Notes under the pieces: model-generated
What the model was told of the DNA's origin: nothing
The model's input: only the letters and a program-made list of their open reading frames with translations
Databases searched by the model: none
Shown here: one piece after another, positions 4,130-58,477 of the stretch
Position numbering within the stretch: position 1 is the first letter of the stretch
How the letters are laid out: each line of letters starts with the position of its first letter
Position numbers and translations under genes: made by a program
From: Capsulimonadaceae bacterium
Lineage (GTDB): Bacteria; Armatimonadota; Armatimonadia; Armatimonadales; Capsulimonadaceae
Assembly: GCA_965215505.1 (NCBI GenBank)
Contig: OZ244065.1
Coordinates: forward strand, 2,464,001 to 2,528,000
DNA: 64,000 bases
Direction of reading: 5' to 3'

Positions 4130-5122
4130 TTACGCCCCAGCCGGCTGGACGCCCTCGGTGAAGATCTGCCGGATGATCTCCTCGGCTTCCACCTCATCAA
4201 TGGCGATGTCAGCGACGGGGAGGCGGGCGAGGACGGCCCCGGCGACCTGGGCGCTCAGGGCGCGCGGGACCTCAAGCGTGCCGTGCCCCCCATCGAATGA
4301 GACGACTTTGCCGAAGGCGGCCAGGGCGAGCTGAGACACAGGCCGCTCGAAGGTCAGCCGGAGCAGCTTGCTGTCCGAGTAGCGGGCGACCAGCCCGTCC
4401 AGCCGGTCGTCGAAGACGACCGCGCCGTGGTCGATGATGATGACCCGGTCGCACAATTCCTGGATGTCCTGCATGTAGTGGGAGGTGAGGATGATCGTGC
4501 TGCCTTCGCGCTCCTGGAAGGTCTTCAGGAACTCGCGGATGCGCTTCTGCGAAACCACGTCCAGGCCGATGGTCGGCTCATCCAGGAAGACGACCTTGGG
4601 GGCGTAGAGCAGCGCGGCCACCAGCTCGCACTTCATCCGCTCGCCCAGCGACAGCTTGCGGACCTGCGTGTTCAGCAGCGGCCCGAGTTCCAGCAGGTCG
4701 GTCAGTTCGGACACGCGCCTTTGGTAGACCTCATCGGGCAACTCATAGATCTCCTTGAGCAGCAGGAACGAGTCGAGGGCGGGCAGGTCCCACCAGAGCT
4801 GGTTCTTCTGGCCCATGACGAGCGAGATCTGCCGCAGGTACGGGTTCCGCCGCTCCCAGGGCGTGTAGCCCAGCACGCTGGCCCGGCCCGAGGTGGGGAA
4901 CAGGATGCCGGAGAGCATTTTCAGCGTGGTCGTCTTCCCCGCCCCGTTCGGCCCAAGGAACCCGACGATCTCCCCCGGCTCGATGCTGAACGAGACGCCC
5001 TTGACGGCCTGCACCGAGACGGTCTGGCGCGTGTAGAGGGACCGGAGGGTCCCTTTGAGGCCGGGGTCTTTCTTGAGAGAGGTGAATGTCTTGGCAAGGT
5101 CTTCGACCTGGATGACGGGCAT
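4130..5122 (-). CDS. ABC transporter ATP-binding protein (ABC-2 type)
   Basis: Walker A GPNGAGKTT, signature LSLGERMK, Walker B FLDEPT, H-loop TSH. Confidence 0.95.
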   Translation of the reverse strand: MPVIQVEDLAKTFTSLKKDPGLKGTLRSLYTRQTVSVQAVKGVSFSIEPGEIVGFLGPNGAGKTTTLKMLSGILFPTSGRASVLGYTPWERRNPYLRQISLVMGQKNQLWWDLPALDSFLLLKEIYELPDEVYQRRVSELTDLLELGPLLNTQVRKLSLGERMKCELVAALLYAPKVVFLDEPTIGLDVVSQKRIREFLKTFQEREGSTIILTSHYMQDIQELCDRVIIIDHGAVVFDDRLDGLVARYSDSKLLRLTFERPVSQLALAAFGKVVSFDGGHGTLEVPRALSAQVAGAVLARLPVADIAIDEVEAEEIIRQIFTEGVQPAGA

Positions 5123-5200
5123 GGAAAGAGTGTACCCGAAGGCACCGTGTCCGGGCGTGGCCCCCGCGTCGGAGGAGGAGAGGGAAGGAGAGGAGGAAAG

Positions 5201-5224
5201 AGGGCGGGGGGACCCCGCCCCTAC
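5201..5224 (-). repeat. REP element GTAGGGGCGGGGTCCCCCCGCCCT
   Basis: Exact copy; its TAG is the stop codon of the RAYT gene. Confidence 0.9.
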
Positions 5225-5775
5225 GAAGGGGGTTGATTTCTGGGGTTGTCCGCATCTTCTCCCCAGCGGGCCGGGCTATGCGTGATGTAGGCCCGCGCCC
5301 TGTCAAGCATTGCCTCGCTGCGGATGATTCTGTCGTAATAGCTGCGTTGCCAAATCCGTGTACCGGGCGTCTTACGCGCCGCGTTGATCCGCTTGCTGGT
5401 CTGGTACTTCCAGTAGGCGATGATCGCCCCCAACGTCGGTTTTGCCTTACCCTGTAGGGGCGGGGTCCCCCCGCCCTCCTCTCCTTCTTCCCTTGTTCCG
5501 CCTTCGTCCCTAATGACGATGATGCCGTGCAGATGGTTTGGCATGACGATGGAGGCATCCAGGTCCACCGTGGGCCAATGCTCTGCGATCTGCTCCCAGA
5601 CCTCACCCGCGACCTGACCCCACCCGTTGATAGTCATCTGCCCGTCAACGATACCGCCGAGCGAACACTCGCGATGTTCAATGCAGACGGTCACGAAGTA
5701 CGCCCCCGCCTCGGCATAATCGTAGTCCTTCACCCGAATGCTGTGGCGGTGATGCCTCTCAGGGTTGTACGCCAT
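5221..5775 (-). CDS. REP-associated tyrosine transposase (RAYT, IS200-like Y1 HUH)
   Basis: GAYFVTVC, VMPNHLHGII (HUH), WQRSYYDRIIR, YITHSP motifs; flanked by GTAG REPs; AAGGAGG RBS. Confidence 0.92.
   Translation of the reverse strand: MAYNPERHHRHSIRVKDYDYAEAGAYFVTVCIEHRECSLGGIVDGQMTINGWGQVAGEVWEQIAEHWPTVDLDASIVMPNHLHGIIVIRDEGGTREEGEEGGGTPPLQGKAKPTLGAIIAYWKYQTSKRINAARKTPGTRIWQRSYYDRIIRSEAMLDRARAYITHSPARWGEDADNPRNQPPS
5454..5477 (+). repeat. REP element inside RAYT coding sequence
   Basis: Exact REP copy, translated as EGGGTPPLQ in the RAYT frame. Confidence 0.9.
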
Positions 5776-5800
5776 ACTGCTTCCCTCCTTAGATCGCCGC

Positions 5801-5827
5801 GTAGGGGCGGGGTCCCCCCGCCCCTAC
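5801..5827. repeat. double-ended REP (GTAG...CTAC)
   Basis: GTAGGGGCGGGGTCCCCCCGCCCCTAC has GTAG on both strands, just upstream of RAYT. Confidence 0.9.
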
Positions 5828-5858
5828 GGGTCAAGGCAGGCGATGGCAGCCAGTGTCG

Positions 5859-6968
5859 TCACGTCCAGTACAGTACCCGCCCCTGCGGGAAGCGGCGGGC
5901 GATCTCGGACGTGAAGAACGCCTTCAGCGTCTTCATCATGTCGTTCGGGTAGACGTACTTGACGCCGCCGAACTTGTTGCGCTTCTCGCTCCGGGTTTCC
6001 TCGGTCATGTCCAGGCTGGTCTTGGGATACCAGCCTTGCAAGACCTCCTTGGAGCCGGGCGTGAAGCGGTGCGTGATCAGCTCGAAGGTGATGTCGGGGG
6101 CGAAGCCGACGGCGGCCTGGGCATCGTCCAGGAGCTGGCTGTAGTGCTGCTCCCAGTCGTCTACGGGGATGATCGGGGCGATGACCAGGCCGACGGGGTA
6201 GCCGCCGCCTCCCTCCGAGCGCGGCAGGGCCAGGCGGCGCAGGGCGTGGAGCCGGGCCGCGACGGGCGCGACGCCGCCCTCCAGCCGGCGGGCGACGGGG
6301 TCGGCGTTGACCGAGGCGCGGGGCCGCGTGTGTCCGTTGTGCGGCAGGTCCAGCAGCGGCTCGACGGCGTCGAACTTGGTGGTGTAGCGCAGGTAAGCGT
6401 TCTCGCGGGTCCCGAACCAGCGGATCGTCTCGGCGAGGCTGCCGGTCAAGTGTTCAAGGGAGAGCGGGTCGGTGTAGCAGGACGCCTCAAAGGTCGTCCC
6501 CGCCGCCTCGTTGCGGCCCACGCCGGGCTTCTCATAGTTCGCGAGGTTGTCCAGAATGCTCGGAAGGTTGGCGAAGGCGCGGATGACCGGCGGCCCGGCG
6601 AGGCTGCCGGCGAGGTAACAATACTGGCAGTGGGCGGGACAGCCCTCCGCCAGATGGAACTGCCAGTCGGCGGAGGGAGGGATGGGCTGGAGCTTGGCCG
6701 CGCTCGGCGCGGCGGCGACCACGGCCAGAGTCCGCTTGGCCTTGTTGTAAGTGGCGCGCTCGTCCTCCCCGCGCAGACCGGTCAGCCGGTTCTGCTTAAG
6801 GACTTCGGTCGGGACGCCCAATGCCTCGACGCGCGCTTTGATCTGCCGCCCCCAGGGCTGTTCCAGGGCTGCGGGAGTGAACTGCGCCTGCTGAGGCATC
6901 CACAGGCGGGGCTTGGCGGGGGCCGCCGGGGGGACTGTTTCGGGCTTGTCTAGCATCACGAGTGTCAT
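5859..6968 (-). CDS. spore photoproduct lyase family radical SAM protein
   Basis: GCPAHCQYCYL CxxxCxxC; FEASCYTDPL; GYPVGLVIAPI; FELITHRFT; KFGGVKYVY. Confidence 0.88.
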   Translation of the reverse strand: MTLVMLDKPETVPPAAPAKPRLWMPQQAQFTPAALEQPWGRQIKARVEALGVPTEVLKQNRLTGLRGEDERATYNKAKRTLAVVAAAPSAAKLQPIPPSADWQFHLAEGCPAHCQYCYLAGSLAGPPVIRAFANLPSILDNLANYEKPGVGRNEAAGTTFEASCYTDPLSLEHLTGSLAETIRWFGTRENAYLRYTTKFDAVEPLLDLPHNGHTRPRASVNADPVARRLEGGVAPVAARLHALRRLALPRSEGGGGYPVGLVIAPIIPVDDWEQHYSQLLDDAQAAVGFAPDITFELITHRFTPGSKEVLQGWYPKTSLDMTEETRSEKRNKFGGVKYVYPNDMMKTLKAFFTSEIARRFPQGRVLYWT

Positions 6969-7029
6969 GCTATTTGAACACCTGCGGGGGTGGGGACGTT
7001 CCGAAAATGGTTAGAAAATGGGTCAATTT

Positions 7030-7827
7030 CTAGCTGCTCGCGCTCGAATAGGCGCGGGTCGCGTGCCGCCAGAATAAGACGCTCAGGCCGAAGAAGCCCG
7101 CCGCCATCAGGGGACCGGCCAGCAGGGCGGAGGCGAGCAAGGGGCGGGTGAGCGCCTGCACCGGGACGGCGGCGAGGAAGGCCAGCGGCAGAATATAGGT
7201 CAGGAAGAACTGTGCGCCCGGCCCGAAGGCGCGGAAGACGTCTATGGGTGTGCGGCTGACGCCGAACACGGTGTCCAGGGCGACGAACAGGTTGTCCAGG
7301 CGGACCAGCCAGAACGAGAGCGTCATGGTCAGCAGGCTGAGAGAATAGAACAGGACGACGCCGCAGAGCAGCAGGAAGAGGTAGGCGGCCACCTGCATTG
7401 GGGCGGGAAGGGCGGGCAGGCGCGACAGGCCGTAGCCGAGCAGGCCGACCGCGCCGACGAGATGCCCCAGGTTGTCCAGGGAGACGTAGCGCAGGGACAC
7501 GAAGAACTGGCTGTTGACGGGCCGCAGCAAGGTGAAATCCATCGTCCCCAGACGGATCTGGTTGGGCAGGTCGGAGAGGTTCTGGTAGAACAAAGTGTCC
7601 GCCACGCCGCGCAGGGCGGAGTAGGTGCCGATCAGGAGGAACATCTGCCCCTCGCTCCACCCGGCGACTGAGTGCGTGTTGACGTAGATCAGCTTCAGGA
7701 ACAGAATGAGGGAGAAGAGCCAGCCGAGGTTGGTGGCGATGCCAGCCCAGAAGTTGGCGCGGAACTCGACCGCCTGGCGCAGACAGTTGCGCCAGAAGGC
7801 GATGTACAGGCGGAAGTGGCGGATCAT
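7030..7827 (-). CDS. ABC-2 family transporter permease (DUF990-like)
   Basis: EFRANF, AGWS, IRLGTMDFTLLRPV, YSSASS motifs; multiple TMs. Confidence 0.9.
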   Translation of the reverse strand: MIRHFRLYIAFWRNCLRQAVEFRANFWAGIATNLGWLFSLILFLKLIYVNTHSVAGWSEGQMFLLIGTYSALRGVADTLFYQNLSDLPNQIRLGTMDFTLLRPVNSQFFVSLRYVSLDNLGHLVGAVGLLGYGLSRLPALPAPMQVAAYLFLLLCGVVLFYSLSLLTMTLSFWLVRLDNLFVALDTVFGVSRTPIDVFRAFGPGAQFFLTYILPLAFLAAVPVQALTRPLLASALLAGPLMAAGFFGLSVLFWRHATRAYSSASS

Positions 7828-8007
7828 ACCAGTGATCTTACCTGATTTGTCCGGCGTTGGCGATGCTGATGTTTAGACCAAACAGGCGCGGGGAACATAC
7901 AGGCTGGCGATATTAGTGTCCGCCGCACAAACAAGAACTTAGAACGAACGCATCGGATGGCGTCGTAACACTACAGGGATGTGACTCTTGCTTGGAGGAA
8001 ACGACAG

Positions 8008-8289
8008 ATGCTTATCTCGATTATCATGTGGCTCGTGGTCGGCTTCCTTGCCGGCCTTCTGGCGAAAGCCATCGTCCCTGGCCCCGCCGAGAAGCCGAGC
8101 GGCTTCCTGGGCACGGCCATCCTGGGCATCGTCGGCGCGATCGTCGGCGGGTTCATCTACTTCCTGGTGTCGGGCGGCAACCGGGGCTTCACGACCCATT
8201 TTGACCTGCCAAGCATTCTGTGGGCGACCCTCGGCGCTGTAGTCGTAGTCGCCATCGAGCGGGCTATCGCCGGCCGCCGCACGATCTAG
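8008..8289 (+). CDS. GlsB/YeaQ/YmgE family stress-response membrane protein
   Basis: WLVVGFLAGLLAKAIVPG...LGIVGAIVGG; GGAGG RBS before ATG 8008. Confidence 0.9.
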   Translation: MLISIIMWLVVGFLAGLLAKAIVPGPAEKPSGFLGTAILGIVGAIVGGFIYFLVSGGNRGFTTHFDLPSILWATLGAVVVVAIERAIAGRRTI

Positions 8290-8322
8290 GACGAACCTGG
8301 AGCGGAACTGAAAAAGCGAAAC

Positions 8323-8356
8323 GAGCCGGGGGCCTTTGCAGGCCCCCGGCTTTTTT
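8323..8356 (+). terminator. intrinsic terminator
   Basis: GAGCCGGGGGCCT-ttgc-AGGCCCCCGGC followed by T6. Confidence 0.8.
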
Positions 8357-8378
8357 GCTGGCAGTAGGAAAGAGAAGG

Positions 8379-8437
8379 AGGGCGGGGGGACCCCGCCCCT
8401 ACATAGACACCATAGGGGGAGGGCTTGCCCCTACCCT
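8379..8437. repeat. REP doublet (exact minus-strand REP plus degenerate plus-strand REP)
   Basis: 8379-8402 exact reverse REP; 9-nt gap; 8412-8437 ATAGGGGGAGGGCTTGCCCCTACCCT degenerate. Confidence 0.75.
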
Positions 8438-8466
8438 CTTAATCACTGCCCATCATACCGCCCGCC

Positions 8467-9579
8467 CTACTCCGCCCGCCACAGGAAATACACGCCCACG
8501 ACCGCGAACAGCAGGGCGGGCGACCAGGCGGCGAGAGACGGCGGCATCTTGCCGGCGAGGCCCAGAATCTTGGTCAGCAGCAGGGTGTTCCAGGCGACCC
8601 AGACCATGATGATTGAGAGGAAGATGCCCATGTATGCCCCAGCCCGCGCGAAGCGCAGGGCGAGCGGCGGGGCACACAAGGCGAAAGACAGGCAGAGGAA
8701 GGGCAGGCCGAGCTTGGCGTAGTAGCTGAAGGCGACGGCGGTATTGTCCTGGCCGGTGCGGGCCAGGGCGTCCATCTGCGCGCCCAGCTCGGCCATCGTC
8801 TGGTCGTCCAGGGTCCCTACCGAAGCCTGCGAGAGACTCGCCAGCGGCACTTGCAGGTTCAGGGTGATCGTCTTCGCGGGGAGGTTGCGCGCCTCGATCT
8901 TCACCAGCCCCTCGGTGTCGAAGGTCATCAAGTGGGCCTCGTACAGCGTCCAGACGTCCCGGTCGTAGTCGGCGCTCTTGGCGGTCAGCAGCATCGGGAA
9001 GCCACCCGGCTCGGTCGGATTCTGGTAGATCGTCACCCCATACAGGCGCAGACGGTCCGCCTTGCCGCCGGGGTCTTTGCGGACCTCCCGGATGTGGAAC
9101 GAGTAATCCTGGAACGTGAAGACCTTGTTCGAGGCCAGGGCCGGAGACGCCTGCAAGGCGTAGGAAAACATCTGGCTCTGCGTCTTCTGGAACTCGCGCC
9201 AGGCCGGAGGGACCACGCGGTCGCCGACCAGGAAGGAGGCCGCCGTGGCGAGCAGGCCGACCATGATGATCGGCAGGAACAGCCGCCGCAGCGGGACGCC
9301 CGCCATGCGGATGGGGGTGACCTCCGAGTCCCGCGCCATCCGGTTGACGGCCCAGGCGGAGGCCAGCGCGACGCCGGGCGGCAGGGTCAGGGGAATCAGG
9401 ATGGGGATGTTGAAGGCGATCAGCCGAGTGACGATCAGCGCGGGGATGCCGTTCTTAACAATGTCCCCGAGGAGCGGCCAGAGCGTGTTACCGACCAGCA
9501 TGACGACGATGAGCAGGATGCCGCCGACGAACGGCAGCACCATCTCCCCGAGCAGGTAGCGGTCCATGCGCTTAATCAT
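8467..9579 (-). CDS. LptF/LptG family permease
   Basis: MDRYLLGEM, RMARDSEVTPIRMAGVPLRR; 3+3 TM layout; PSLAAWSP. Confidence 0.9.
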   Translation of the reverse strand: MIKRMDRYLLGEMVLPFVGGILLIVVMLVGNTLWPLLGDIVKNGIPALIVTRLIAFNIPILIPLTLPPGVALASAWAVNRMARDSEVTPIRMAGVPLRRLFLPIIMVGLLATAASFLVGDRVVPPAWREFQKTQSQMFSYALQASPALASNKVFTFQDYSFHIREVRKDPGGKADRLRLYGVTIYQNPTEPGGFPMLLTAKSADYDRDVWTLYEAHLMTFDTEGLVKIEARNLPAKTITLNLQVPLASLSQASVGTLDDQTMAELGAQMDALARTGQDNTAVAFSYYAKLGLPFLCLSFALCAPPLALRFARAGAYMGIFLSIIMVWVAWNTLLLTKILGLAGKMPPSLAAWSPALLFAVVGVYFLWRAE

Positions 9580-9604
9580 AGGGTATAATCACCGGTGCGA
9601 GGCG

Positions 9605-10426
9605 CTACTGCAAGTTCAGCCGGATCGTGAAGTCGGTGATGTCCAGGTCGGCTGTGTTGACCGTGCTTCCGCCGCCGCCGCTCTGAACGCCTGACACGAT
9701 GATGGGGACGCCGCTGACATTCTGAGCGACATCGCCGGCGGCCTCGATGTTCCGATCGCTGTTGAGGAAGTTTAGTTGCTGGACCGGCCCGCCCGCCGTG
9801 TTGCGGACGAAGACGTTGACGAAGTTGTTGCCGGACTGGTCCGGCGTATAAAGCGCGTCGAAGTACTTGGGGGTGCTGAAGTCGTTCCCGGCGACCTGGA
9901 CGGTGTTTGTGGTCACGAAGTTGATCTGCAAGGTCTGAATCTGGTCCACGCTGACGGTGGATGTCGCCAGCCGTGCGAGCGGGAGCTGGAACGAGAGCGT
10001 GTTGCCGGACACCAGCGAGGCCACCAGATAGCCGCTCGACCCCAGGTAGTTGAATGTACGCAGGGTGGGGTCAATGTTGTAAAACCCAAAGCCGGTGCCG
10101 CCGGGGACGCCCTGGTTATACTCGACATAGTTGGTGAACGCGCCTGCCGCGAAGCCGTTGACGTAGGGCGGCGCGACGACCGGAACCGGCCCGGTCGGGC
10201 CGGAGTTGTTCCCGTTGGGCGTCATGTTGACGTTGAACAGGACGTAGTAGTAATTGGCGGCATTGATGCTACCCGCGACCGTCATGGTGATGAGGAGCTG
10301 CGGGCCGGACGTGGGGCTGGTGATGCCGCCGCTGGGCGACTTGGCGCAGCCCGCAAGCAGCAGGGCGGGCGCGGCGAGCAGCAGGGTCCGGCGGGTGAAT
10401 CGGGGGGGGTCTTCAGGCGTTTGCAT
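9605..10426 (-). CDS. hypothetical lipoprotein (possible Tat signal)
   Basis: TRRTLL then LLLAGC lipobox; beta-rich Thr/Asn/Gly mature region. Confidence 0.75.
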   Translation of the reverse strand: MQTPEDPPRFTRRTLLLAAPALLLAGCAKSPSGGITSPTSGPQLLITMTVAGSINAANYYYVLFNVNMTPNGNNSGPTGPVPVVAPPYVNGFAAGAFTNYVEYNQGVPGGTGFGFYNIDPTLRTFNYLGSSGYLVASLVSGNTLSFQLPLARLATSTVSVDQIQTLQINFVTTNTVQVAGNDFSTPKYFDALYTPDQSGNNFVNVFVRNTAGGPVQQLNFLNSDRNIEAAGDVAQNVSGVPIIVSGVQSGGGGSTVNTADLDITDFTIRLNLQ

Positions 10427-10432
10427 CAGGTC

Positions 10433-10462
10433 ATTATAGCAGGAATCGGGCCGCATTGACAA
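10433..10462 (-). promoter_or_regulatory. sigma70 promoter giving a leaderless mRNA
   Basis: TTGTCA-18nt-(TGc)TATAAT-6nt-ATG. Confidence 0.7.
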
Positions 10463-12153
10463 CGAGGGAACAGACCGCGTCGGATGAAAGGGCGGGGCAG
10501 AAGAAGAGGGCGGGGGGACCCCGCCCCTACGGGACGCCGTGTAGGGGCGGGGTCCCCCCGCCCTCCCCTGTCCATGGGAGCCGCACGGGCCTCCTGCGGA
10601 GCGTCAGCCTCACCGCCCTTTCCGGCCTGCTGCTGGCCGCCGCCCTCCCCCGCCTGGACTGCGGCTGGCTCGCCTGGGTCGGCCTGGTCCCCTTCCTCAC
10701 CCTCTTCCCTTTCCGCTCCAAGCGCGCCGCCTTCGCCCACGGGCTGCTCCTCGGCGCCTGCTTCCTCGGCACGATGTCCTATTGGATCATCGTCTTCGCA
10801 GGCCACATCATCGGCCCCGCTCTCAGCACACTCGGCTGGGCACTCGTCACCGCCTACCAGGCGTTCTACATCGGCGTCTGGGCGCTGGGCGCGCAGTGGC
10901 TCCGGACGCGCCCCTCCCCCTGGGCCTTCCGGCTCGGCGTCCCCGCCCTGTGGGCCGTCGTCGAGTGGTGGCGGCAGTCGGGGACGCTGGCGCTGGGCTG
11001 GGGGGACCTGGCCTATACCCAGCACCTCGCGCTGCCGGCCTTACAGGTGACGAAGCTGACGGGCATCTGGGGGCTGGCGTTCCTGATCGTTCTGGTGAAC
11101 GTCGCGCTGGCGGAGGCGTGGCGGGGACGGCGGGTGGGCGTGTTCGCCATACTCACGGCGGCCACAGTCGCCGCAGCCTTGGTGTACGGGACGCTGGCGA
11201 TGCGGGGAGAGCGTCTGCGGCCCACGTTCGTGGCGGCGGCCTTGCAGGGGAACATCGTACAGGACGTGCCGCAAGGCCCGGCCTATGTGGAGCGCGTGGT
11301 GGAGACGTTCGGGGCGCAGAGCCGAGAAGCGGCGGCACACGGGGCGCGGCTGACGGTCTGGCCCGAAACCGCCTATCCGGGGTACTTGCAGCCGGACACG
11401 CCGCTTGGGCCGCGCGCGCGGGTGGGAGCGGAGACGGTGCGCGACCATCAGGTCGCTCTGATCGGGGGCGTGGAGTACGACGCGGGGGAGCGCAAGAACG
11501 CCAACAGCCTGTTCCTGATGGACGCGCAGGGAAACGTGACGGGGAGCTACCAGAAGCGTCAGCTCGTGCCGTTCGGGGAGTTCACGCCGGGGCGGCGCTG
11601 GATGCCGTTCTTAGAGGCCCTGCACGTCACGACCTTCGACATGAAGCGCGGGGCGGACACGCAGGCGCTGCTCGACGCCGGGCCGGGCATCGGCAAGGTC
11701 GGGGCGACCATCTGCTTCGAGTCGTCCTACCCCCGCTTCCTCCGAGAACAAGTGGCCCGAGGAGCCGGCCTGCTCGTCGTGTCCACCGACGACGCCTGGT
11801 TCGGGCGCACGGCCGCGGCACGACAGCACTCCGCCATCGCCGCCGTCCGCGCCGCCGAGACCGACCGCTACCTCGTCCGCAGCGCGGCCACCGGCGTCTC
11901 GCAGGTGATTGACCCGTCGGGCCGGGTGATCGCAGAGGCGGGCCTGTTCCAGCCCGCCGTGGTGTGGGGGCGGGTCGAGTCGCGGGCGACATTGACACCG
12001 TGTGTGCGCTGGGGGGACTGGTTCGTCGGCTTCTGCGCCCTGCTGCTGATAGCCCTGAGCCTGCTGCCGGGGAGCATGAGGGAAGAAGGCCAGGAGGAAG
12101 AAAAAGGGCGGGGCAGGAAAAAAGGGCGGGGGGACCCCGCCCCTACAGGATAG
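10456..12153 (+). CDS. lnt: apolipoprotein N-acyltransferase (start uncertain)
   Basis: N-terminal TMs; QGNI, WPETA, YQKRQLVPFGEF, ICFES, DDAWFG nitrilase-fold motifs. Confidence 0.93.
   Translation: MTTREQTASDERAGQKKRAGGPRPYGTPCRGGVPPPSPVHGSRTGLLRSVSLTALSGLLLAAALPRLDCGWLAWVGLVPFLTLFPFRSKRAAFAHGLLLGACFLGTMSYWIIVFAGHIIGPALSTLGWALVTAYQAFYIGVWALGAQWLRTRPSPWAFRLGVPALWAVVEWWRQSGTLALGWGDLAYTQHLALPALQVTKLTGIWGLAFLIVLVNVALAEAWRGRRVGVFAILTAATVAAALVYGTLAMRGERLRPTFVAAALQGNIVQDVPQGPAYVERVVETFGAQSREAAAHGARLTVWPETAYPGYLQPDTPLGPRARVGAETVRDHQVALIGGVEYDAGERKNANSLFLMDAQGNVTGSYQKRQLVPFGEFTPGRRWMPFLEALHVTTFDMKRGADTQALLDAGPGIGKVGATICFESSYPRFLREQVARGAGLLVVSTDDAWFGRTAAARQHSAIAAVRAAETDRYLVRSAATGVSQVIDPSGRVIAEAGLFQPAVVWGRVESRATLTPCVRWGDWFVGFCALLLIALSLLPGSMREEGQEEEKGRGRKKGRGDPAPTG
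10507..10564. repeat. back-to-back REP doublet
   Basis: Reverse REP 10507-10530, 10-nt spacer, forward REP 10541-10564; both exact. Confidence 0.9.
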
Positions 12154-12180
12154 GCCGTAGGGGCAGGGTCCCCCAGCCCT
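12123..12180. repeat. back-to-back REP doublet
   Basis: Reverse REP 12123-12146 (exact), 10-nt spacer, forward variant GTAGGGGCAGGGTCCCCCAGCCCT 12157-12180. Confidence 0.88.
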
Positions 12181-12193
12181 CTGTCGGTTTGCT

Positions 12194-12649
12194 TCAGTGT
12201 TCGTGTTCGCCGCGCAGGAACTTCTCGTAGTTCGGGCCGCTGACGCCGTAGTCCTTGCGCGCGTCGTCCCGGTAGACTTCCAGGCCGGTGCGGATGCCGC
12301 CGGGCGGGAAGAAGGAGACGAAGCGGAACATCCCTGACACGCCGGGCGGCAGGTTGCCCGTCGAGACCAGATAGGTCGGCGACTCTGGTTCGTTCAGAGC
12401 CACCTCCCAGCGCAGGCGGGACCAGCCGCGCGGGACGGACTTGTGCATCCAGAAGGCGGCCTCGGGTCCCCCGCTGGAGAAGCCGAGCGGCAGGGGCTTC
12501 GGCTGGTAATCGGGGCGAAACAGGTACGGGCCGAGGCGGAGACGAGTGATCGCCGGCTTGCCTTCATCGGCGCGCAGCAGCAGCTCGTACACGAAGCCGT
12601 CGTTGTTCGCCACGCAGGTGAGCATGGGGGCGACTTCCGGGATGATCAT
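12194..12649 (-). CDS. hypothetical protein
   Basis: GGAGG RBS before MIIPEVAP; protein-like composition. Confidence 0.7.
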   Translation of the reverse strand: MIIPEVAPMLTCVANNDGFVYELLLRADEGKPAITRLRLGPYLFRPDYQPKPLPLGFSSGGPEAAFWMHKSVPRGWSRLRWEVALNEPESPTYLVSTGNLPPGVSGMFRFVSFFPPGGIRTGLEVYRDDARKDYGVSGPNYEKFLRGEHEH

Positions 12650-58453: not shown

Positions 58454-58477
58454 AGGGCGGGGGGATCCCGCCCCTAC
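58454..58477 (-). repeat. REP element (1 mismatch)
   Basis: Reverse of GTAGGGGCGGGATCCCCCCGCCCT. Confidence 0.85.

Follow-up and report, generated by a model that had tools for sequence, protein, structure and literature searches.

Do short repeats beside a transposase gene mark the ends of mobile gene cassettes, or were they placed among genes which had been neighbours all along? The question is raised by a 64,000-nt stretch of an Armatimonadota (Capsulimonadaceae-like) genome, here called the window (positions 2,464,001-2,528,000 of contig OZ244065.1, assembly GCA_965215505.1; the contig has 6,177,771 bases and 66.5% G+C). In it, a gene for a RAYT (REP-associated tyrosine transposase) is accompanied by REPs (repetitive extragenic palindromic sequences), several of them in back-to-back doublets between genes. 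Window coordinates are used throughout; G000 is the genome of the window, other G labels denote genomes of the same genus (congeners). An earlier note on this DNA had offered two explanations, local REP seeding or a RAYT-driven shuffling of genes as REP-bounded cargo. We compared the locus with congeners and mapped the repeats genome-wide. It is quite likely that the locus is a REPtron, i.e. a small, domesticated single-copy RAYT of the HUH/Y1 type with locally seeded head-to-head REP dimers, and that its neighbours are ancestral genes and not cargo.

A RAYT gene among family-A REPs

The window was searched with a 23-nt core of the REP family termed A, GTAGGGGCGGGGTCCCCCCGCCC, allowing up to 3 mismatches. 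Ten matches were found compared to 0.00 expected (100 shuffles). A family-A REP has 23 nt with a GTAG foot and an 8-bp G+C stem. Eight copies, constituting 6 units, lie within 5202-12179 (6,978 bases; genome 2,469,202-2,476,179), and seven of these have perfect cores. The ninth match is solitary and distant, and the tenth, at 5805 on the minus strand, is the reverse reading of a palindrome at 5801-5827. The REP at 8412-8436 was assigned to another family, H (consensus GTAGGGGTAGGGCTTGCCCCTACCC), and not to family A. Thus the earlier count of nine REP or REP-like copies near the RAYT and one far away holds, as eight of family A plus one of family H, with the distant copy at 58455. The RAYT unit and the REPs are:

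5123-5858, minus strand: REPtron insertion of 736 nt, between the start codon of an ABC ATPase gene and the stop codon of a spore photoproduct lyase (SPL) gene; the gap in G015 is 2 nt
5221-5775, minus strand: RAYT/TnpA_REP gene, 184 amino acids; HUH at residues 81-83, catalytic Tyr163, Ser167
5202-5224, minus strand: family-A REP on the 3' side of the RAYT gene; its GTAG includes the RAYT stop codon TAG; purine-rich tail at 5172-5201
5454-5476, plus strand: family-A REP that is part of the RAYT gene and is read in frame as EGGGTPPLQ, with the HUH and Tyr motifs on either side
5801-5827, both strands: perfectly palindromic 'double-foot' REP of 27 nt (GTAG-hairpin-CTAC), which precedes the RAYT start codon by 25 nt
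8380-8402, minus strand: family-A REP in an insert of about 105 nt past the glsB terminator; forms the left half of a head-to-head dimer of two families
8412-8436, plus strand: family-H-like REP with an ATAG foot, differing from the family consensus at 2 positions; forms the right half of the mixed dimer
10508-10563, REPs at 10508 (minus strand) and 10541 (plus strand): head-to-head family-A dimer, CTAC-10 nt-GTAG, in the spacer from which the lipoprotein and lnt genes diverge
12124-12179, REPs at 12124 (minus strand) and 12157 (plus strand, 2 mismatches): head-to-head family-A dimer between the convergent lnt and next genes, in an insert of about 130 nt
58455-58477, minus strand: solitary family-A REP variant, 1 mismatch

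The RAYT carries the motif NHLHG at residues 80-84, and Tyr163 is located in a C-terminal YITHSP helix; these align with H59/H61 and Y115 of the E. coli TnpA_REP structure 4ER8. A search of the PDB with the single RAYT sequence gave no match. A profile from 14 RAYT homologues had 4ER8 as its sole PDB match (E 2.8e-4), with HUH and Tyr aligned. In total, 456 homologues were collected, several of which carry the name RayT from their sources. A scan of genome contigs with the single protein found no relative; an alignment-based scan then gave 79 loci. The gene is bracketed by the inverted GTAG REPs at 5202 (minus) and 5801 (plus) in the arrangement hairpin-CTAC, gene, GTAG-hairpin, and such a layout was seen in most of 10 inspected RAYT loci of relatives. 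The RAYT ribosome-binding site falls into the 25 nt which separate the REP at 5801 from the start codon. The palindrome at 5801-5827 folds with -19.2 kcal/mol (z -4.9).

The EGGGTPPLQ peptide encoded by the intragenic REP is retained in the eight nearest homologues, whose identity to the query in the alignment is 63-93%. The loop past the HUH motif was compared with the flanks of its own gene in the 79 homologue loci, which come from many phyla; 73 could be scored. Exact sharing over 16-39 nt was observed in 22 of the 73. In control segments of the homologue genes the shared stretch never exceeded 12 nt, and none of the 73 reached 16.

The three doublets have the geometry described earlier, CTAC-(9-10 nt)-GTAG. 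The spacers are 10 nt at 10530/10541 and at 12146/12157 and 9 nt at 8402/8412, where CTAC faces ATAG. The dimer at 10508-10563, with an additional half-site at 10487-10500 beside it, folds as a single long hairpin (-43.7 kcal/mol, z -7.5), and so does that at 12124-12179 (-30.1 kcal/mol, z -4.6); in each case none of 200 shuffles was equally stable. The mixed pair 8380/8412 folds into two small separate hairpins and not into one long hairpin. The two family-A dimers are 85% identical over 79 nt including their tails and have a 14-mer in common that is unique in the genome. A sister origin of the two, as judged from the tails, was dropped as a weak hint because tails of other copies score equal or higher. 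The tails themselves (10487-10507, 12103-12123, and in the relatives' loci L041, L043 and L046) consist of a repeated unit of a pyrimidine-rich spacer and the 3' arm of the hairpin, i.e. they are purine-rich on the opposite strand. In the RAYT loops of L083, L086 and L109 the same tail repeats are translated as peptide repeats.

Contigs (Logan) of 4 sequencing runs from 4 studies were compared with 4900-12400; such contigs break at repeats, and rare events are invisible in them. One contig of run X11 spans 5196-5975 with zero differences, one of run X1 spans 5015-5823, and one of run X16 spans 7335-9229 and crosses the mixed dimer. Therefore, the RAYT unit and the mixed dimer are present in related populations. 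All sides of the contig joints listed measure 20-39 nt, which is roughly REP length, and are uninformative on circles or rearrangements. The joints 5226->12157 and 10532->12156, which link REPs, have 8 and 18 foreign letters between their sides. This indicates that other REP dimers of the genome were matched to two local REPs. In one X1 contig (depth 4.6) one base fewer was noted at 5467 within the intragenic REP, which would shift the frame; this may be an assembly error.

Gene order and empty sites in congeners

The RAYT unit and the dimers are interspersed with the following genes:

4130-5122, minus strand: ABC transporter ATPase (PF00005, E 9e-25)
5859-6968, minus strand: SPL-family radical SAM protein (PF20903, E 6e-85)
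7030-7827, minus strand: ABC-2 family permease (PF06182, E 4e-46)
7981-8289, plus strand: small membrane protein with a Transgly_assoc domain, named glsB in the earlier note (PF04226, E 1.8e-8)
8467-9579, minus strand: LptF/LptG permease, LptFG below (PF03739, E 7e-67)
9605-10462, minus strand: open frame called a lipoprotein by the earlier note; no family match
10566-12153, plus strand: apolipoprotein N-acyltransferase, Lnt (PF20154, PF00795), with a REP-derived C-terminal extension of 29 amino acids

REPs with GTAG outside enclose three blocks, 5801-8402 (SPL, permease, glsB), 8412-10530 (LptFG, lipoprotein) and 10541-12146 (lnt). Pfam searches bore out the coordinates and gene contents with which the earlier note had delimited them. 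Does this arrangement depend on the REPs? We examined the orthologous regions from 14 same-genus genomes, onto which 17 window proteins were mapped by tblastn (E ≤1e-8; matches covering <40% of the query were discarded). The full order SPL-(permease)-glsB-LptFG-lipoprotein-lnt-next gene, with the same orientations, was found in G006, G008, G015, G001 and G014. At ≤4 mismatches, family-A REPs are absent from the locus in these five congeners. Genome-wide (≤2 mismatches) G015 has 4 family-A copies, and G006, G008, G001 and G014 have 0. The lipoprotein|lnt junction, which bears a dimer in G000, is intact in all 14 congener loci, as is the adjacency of the 9605-10462 orthologues to LptFG. To judge from these comparisons, the genes between the REPs are vertically inherited ancestral neighbours and not cargo.

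At two junctions congeners provided empty sites. Between glsB and LptFG the sequences of G012, G006, G013 and G008 go from the glsB terminator directly to the LptFG stop codon; the spacer of G000 has about 105 extra nt, which carry the mixed dimer. At the lnt|next gene junction of G008, G006, G001 and G014 the two convergent genes meet stop to stop; G000 has an insert of about 130 nt. Compared to the empty sites, both inserts are whole dimers with tails. This demonstrated that the REP units are insertions of about 105-130 nt into intergenic DNA of an ancestral gene array. At the site of a G000 dimer, G011 has one family-A-like REP.

The RAYT unit itself has a counterpart of this kind. In G015 the order is ABC ATPase-SPL-ABC-2 permease without a RAYT, and the start of the ATPase gene and the stop of the SPL gene are 2 nt apart versus 736 nt in G000. 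Accordingly, the SPL gene separated the ATPase from the permease before the RAYT arrived. The earlier note had the ATPase and its likely permease separated by RAYT and SPL. This describes G000 properly; as an effect of the RAYT it does not stand, since the SPL part of the separation is older.

Further variation was seen within the array. G013, G015 and G017 have the ABC-2 permease gene between SPL and glsB, with borders devoid of REPs. It was not found in the SPL-glsB gap of G012, G006, G016, G008, G001 and G014, i.e. the gene was gained or lost. G006 and G015 have inserts of 1.4 and 2.2 kb, respectively, between LptFG and the lipoprotein gene, a junction free of REPs in G000. In the glsB|LptFG spacer of G015 (L026 8761-9224) an IS200-like Y1 transposase is located, in two open frames (PF01797, E 2e-13 and 5e-13). 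The lipoprotein|lnt spacer (window 10463-10565) contains REPs of other kinds in three congeners, family B in G012 (L021), a family-A variant in G011 (L034) and a D/E-like REP in G014 (L031), all in the same orientation and 25-90 nt past a conserved TTGACA. In G008 (L025) the spacer has a footless hairpin. The lipoprotein|lnt spacer is either a recurrent REP target or holds a resident REP with turnover of families.

The lnt gene was altered by its insert. At 12067-12153 the frame continues for 29 codons past the ends of the orthologues, through the purine-rich tail and the left REP (…LPGSMREEGQEEEKGRGRKKGRGDPAPTG*), and ends within the spacer of the 12124 dimer. The Lnt C-terminal extension is a further REP-decorated protein.

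Family A in the genome and the competing readings

Genome-wide, family A has 121 copies in 6,177,771 bases (≤3 mismatches); 65 of 123 raw matches are perfect. The densest 7-kb stretch is the RAYT locus with 8 copies in 6 units; the next-best has 4. None of 2000 random placements of 101 family-A units gave 6 units in 7 kb. No copy occurs over 346 kb upstream of the cluster, and the nearest downstream is 46 kb away. The earlier note had named equally dense doublets throughout the genome as an observation that would speak against its reading; they are not equally dense, hence the locus is a genuine hot spot. The arrangement CTAC-spacer-GTAG is shown by 19 of 20 close family-A pairs, with spacers of 10-11 nt in 9 and of 17-23 nt in 8.

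G000 contains at least 7 REP families with 521 mapped copies, all of which begin with GTAGGGG. The type of dimer depends on the family. In A, B and F the GTAG is inside; in D/E it is outside (22 of 25 pairs), with spacers of 30-110 nt. Joins between different families are frequent (53 of 119 adjacent REP pairs). The RAYT cluster is composed differently: 8 of its 9 REPs are family A, though this family accounts for only 121 of the 521 mapped REPs. When all families are counted in 7-kb windows the cluster is second with 9 and is the sole dense window that is nearly one-family. The run of mostly perfect copies of one family fits preferential action near the RAYT gene, and local seeding, the other option of the earlier note, is supported by density and composition alike.

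As for candidate enzymes, the RAYT profile matched only 2 loci in G000, one of them truncated; thus only one intact RAYT of its class faces at least 7 REP families. The second RAYT (L046, G000:C1:4634673-4635236) ends just past its HUH motif at a family-B REP in GTAG orientation, and another family-B REP is located upstream. NF047646, the NCBIfam REP-associated tyrosine transposase model, has weak matches in G000 at 2379872, 4021292, 5993874, 3511122 and 5328988. None of the five is <1 kb from a mapped REP, and none matches the RAYT profile.

Some observations on repeats stand apart. In G013 the 23-nt core of family A occurs 103 times without a mismatch. D/E-type REPs stand on either side of the one RAYT match in that genome (42% identity), and many close family-A pairs there have GTAG outside, separated by about 30-115 nt. 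G000 also contains repeats other than REPs, i.e. a 124-copy unit containing GTGATTTCAATCACTCG, an array-like 82-copy unit of >30 nt and a palindrome in about 110 copies, TGTCCCCTGGACAGGTCC.

If the RAYT shuffled genes, the GTAG-outside REP pairs would be the ends of mobile cassettes and the blocks 5801-8402, 8412-10530 and 10541-12146 their cargo. With 1.6-2.6 kb the blocks would be within the cargo range of IS200/IS605-type elements, gene order differs in some congeners at three of the four junctions that bear REPs (ATPase|SPL, glsB|LptFG, lnt|next gene), and in G018 the LptFG junction is broken and has a REP-like sequence next to it. Yet five congeners share block order and orientation without a family-A REP in the locus, an outcome which the earlier note itself had named as refuting, and the fourth junction, lipoprotein|lnt, carries a dimer and is kept in every locus. 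Junctions which are REP-free in G000 vary too, as the permease and the inserts beside LptFG in G006 and G015 illustrate. Further, gene orientation is mixed in the blocks, and the genes have terminator and promoter regions of their own. A second copy of a block was not seen (the other LptFG match of the genome is just 21% identical), and family A pairs with GTAG inside across 10-50 nt (19 of 20), not outside. Gene shuffling, the second option of the earlier note, is thus highly improbable. An integron-like reading was dropped as well since the genes are mixed in orientation and their order is conserved; no search aimed at an integrase was made. The cluster might also have nothing to do with the RAYT, permissive intergenic spacers simply collecting REPs. 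This would agree with the REPs of other families in the lipoprotein|lnt spacer of G012, G011 and G014 and with the IS200-like element in the glsB|LptFG spacer of G015, which indicate that these spacers are targets in their own right, and with a denser, mixed cluster elsewhere in the genome that has no RAYT (at 3125373-3131911). It does not account for the composition of the cluster, with 8 of 9 local REPs from a family that provides 121 of 521 (5 of 6 when the three REPtron copies are omitted), for the absence of family A over 346 kb upstream and 46 kb downstream, or for the other dense windows being mixtures of families. We regard it as quite improbable.

The doublets could, finally, be no units at all, single REPs being inserted beside the foot of a resident REP. 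The many mixed-family neighbours, 8380/8412 included, suggest this, as do the unrelated spacers of the head-to-head family-A dimers and the single family-A-like REP of G011 where G000 has a dimer. On the other hand, entire dimers plus tails make up the inserts at glsB|LptFG and lnt|next gene, spacer lengths peak at 10-11 nt (9 of 20), and the two local dimers are alike well into their tails and have their 14-mer in common with no other place in the genome. Insertion of single REPs is possible but less likely than not.

Several points weigh against a REPtron with locally seeded dimers. Gene order is not fixed in the genus. Of 13 informative genomes, 9 keep the glsB|LptFG junction and four have it broken (G009, G002, G005 and G018), and the lnt|next gene junction is kept in 7 of 12 informative congeners. 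The densest 7-kb window for all families, at genome positions 3125373-3131911, has 13 REPs from 4 families and no RAYT; REP-rich spots therefore arise without a RAYT. The spacers of the 19 head-to-head family-A dimers vary in length and are unrelated in sequence, so that a dimer may not move as one unit, and the proportion of mixed-family pairs fits insertion beside an existing REP. The RAYT stays below the thresholds of curated models, with 51.4 bits versus 80 for NF047646 and 17.4 versus 23 for PF01797 (Y1_Tnp); in 14 control genomes NF047646 had matches in 8 and its cut-off was passed in only 1. Moreover, this is one locus only and affords no statistics on cis action or direction. Lastly, residue 167 of the RAYT (codon 5275-5277, minus strand), four residues after the catalytic Tyr, is a Ser. 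The equivalent residue is Asn in 80 of 80 homologue loci with the motif and in 101 of 102 proteins. In the profile alignment with 4ER8 it corresponds to N119, described as a metal ligand of E. coli TnpA_REP (PMC3479197). Because the metal-ligand Asn is replaced by Ser, the RAYT allele of the window may be a recent weak or dead variant. In contigs of runs X14 and X1 a T instead of C at 5276 results in an Asn codon; those of runs X11 and X16 have the C of the window. This strain polymorphism at a catalytic-site residue could be used for testing the activity of subclass 2.4 RAYTs.

How could a REPtron with seeded dimers have come about? A 736-nt RAYT unit was inserted into an SPL-ABC ATPase operon. 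The doublets have the layout of the RAYT unit, the gene being replaced by a spacer of 10-50 nt, and may be REPIN-like, non-autonomous elements. If it works like the Y1 transposases characterised so far, the RAYT would attach to single-stranded DNA at the folded hairpin and the GTAG foot, then cut and rejoin it. Acting preferentially near its own gene, it would have placed REP units of about 105-130 nt into three nearby intergenic spacers, i.e. the one past the glsB terminator, the one from which the lipoprotein and lnt genes diverge, and the one on which lnt and the next gene converge. Seeding by the RAYT, its preferential action in cis and the strand chemistry are what we infer from the sequence comparisons.

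The position in the replichore was also considered. The origin is at about 6.16/0 Mb, the terminus at about 3.29 Mb and the RAYT locus at 2.47 Mb. The one-family dimer run lies only on that side of the RAYT toward which the replication fork travels. REP orientation with respect to replication is weak (the GTAG form is on the leading strand in 123 of 295 singletons), and no conclusion was drawn from it. The 13-REP window is located about 160 kb from the skew-inferred terminus. Possibly the run is the fresh footprint of 'local hopping' in cis, coupled to the fork, by a RAYT of subclass 2.4 just before it lost the metal-ligand Asn, with one foot specificity (GTAGGGGC) serving at least 7 REP families and resident feet as landing sites; this wider proposal is rather unlikely.

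Relation to known systems

The locus represents a clean and well-bounded REPtron outside Proteobacteria and Cyanobacteria, in a little-studied phylum, and the empty-site comparisons define the inserted DNA and its sites. Nothing in it is categorically new; an in-frame intragenic REP, a double-foot REP, head-to-head dimers and RAYT-adjacent clusters have all been published. A general point is that the gene order of relatives should be checked before REP-bounded gene blocks beside a RAYT are called mobile cassettes. With IS200/IS605 elements the locus has in common the Y1 HUH transposase and subterminal hairpins at both ends of the unit. It differs in that the RAYT unit is single-copy and that the hairpins were multiplied, not the gene.

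Work of Ton-Hoang and colleagues from 2012 reportedly connects the E. coli TnpA_REP with REP and BIME (bacterial interspersed mosaic element) sequences. As described by Messing et al. (2012, PMC3479197), that system likewise has a 5' GTAG foot with a hairpin, HUH and Tyr motifs and inverted REP pairs. There, GTAG and the bottom of the stem are bound base-specifically, and the active site consists of H59, H61, N119, H123, E161 and Y115. Sequence likeness to the present RAYT is weak (the profile E-value to 4ER8 given above), and H123 is replaced by Trp in this clade. The E. coli REPs are described as requiring a mismatch bulge for binding (PMC3479197), whereas the stems here are perfect G+C hairpins.

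The REPINs of P. fluorescens SBW25 are reported to be inverted hairpin doublets, with a single-copy RAYT, clusters of cognate repeats next to it and mixed clusters that originate from insertion beside existing elements (Bertels and Rainey, 2011, PMC3116915). All of this is matched here, and two REPIN hallmarks are present, i.e. inverted pairs (19 of 20 in family A) and same-family doublets that fold as one hairpin. Compared to that account the differences are in geometry and number. In SBW25 group I the first bases of the two 16-mers are 71 nt apart (PMC3116915); here the spacers are 10-50 nt and unconserved. Further, seven families share one foot, with a single intact RAYT of this class in the genome, and the cluster is interleaved with genes and is no tandem array.

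The GTAG-tagged REP families (Di Nocera, De Gregorio and Rocco, 2013, PMC3733652) have the GTAG tag, dimers in opposite orientation (head-to-head or tail-to-tail) and occasional in-frame intragenic REPs, and are mostly located after coding regions and between convergent genes; as far as they are portrayed there, the present REPs show no substantive difference. The closest likeness is to the subclass 2.4 REPtrons (Quentin, Siguier, Chandler and Fichant, 2018, PMC6006769). For this subclass an HUH/Y1 protein, inverted GTAG REPs, G-C stem bottoms, an in-frame intragenic REP, 'double-foot' REPs and short repeats that vary the insert are described, and all are found here. By these features the RAYT is subclass 2.4-like, an assignment by likeness and not by placement in the published tree. 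The main hosts of the subclass are given as Cyanobacteria and Bacteroidetes, others being scattered (PMC6006769). The present locus differs from that description by its Armatimonadota host, by the Asn to Ser allele, and by the extra dimers which extend across 7 kb between genes.

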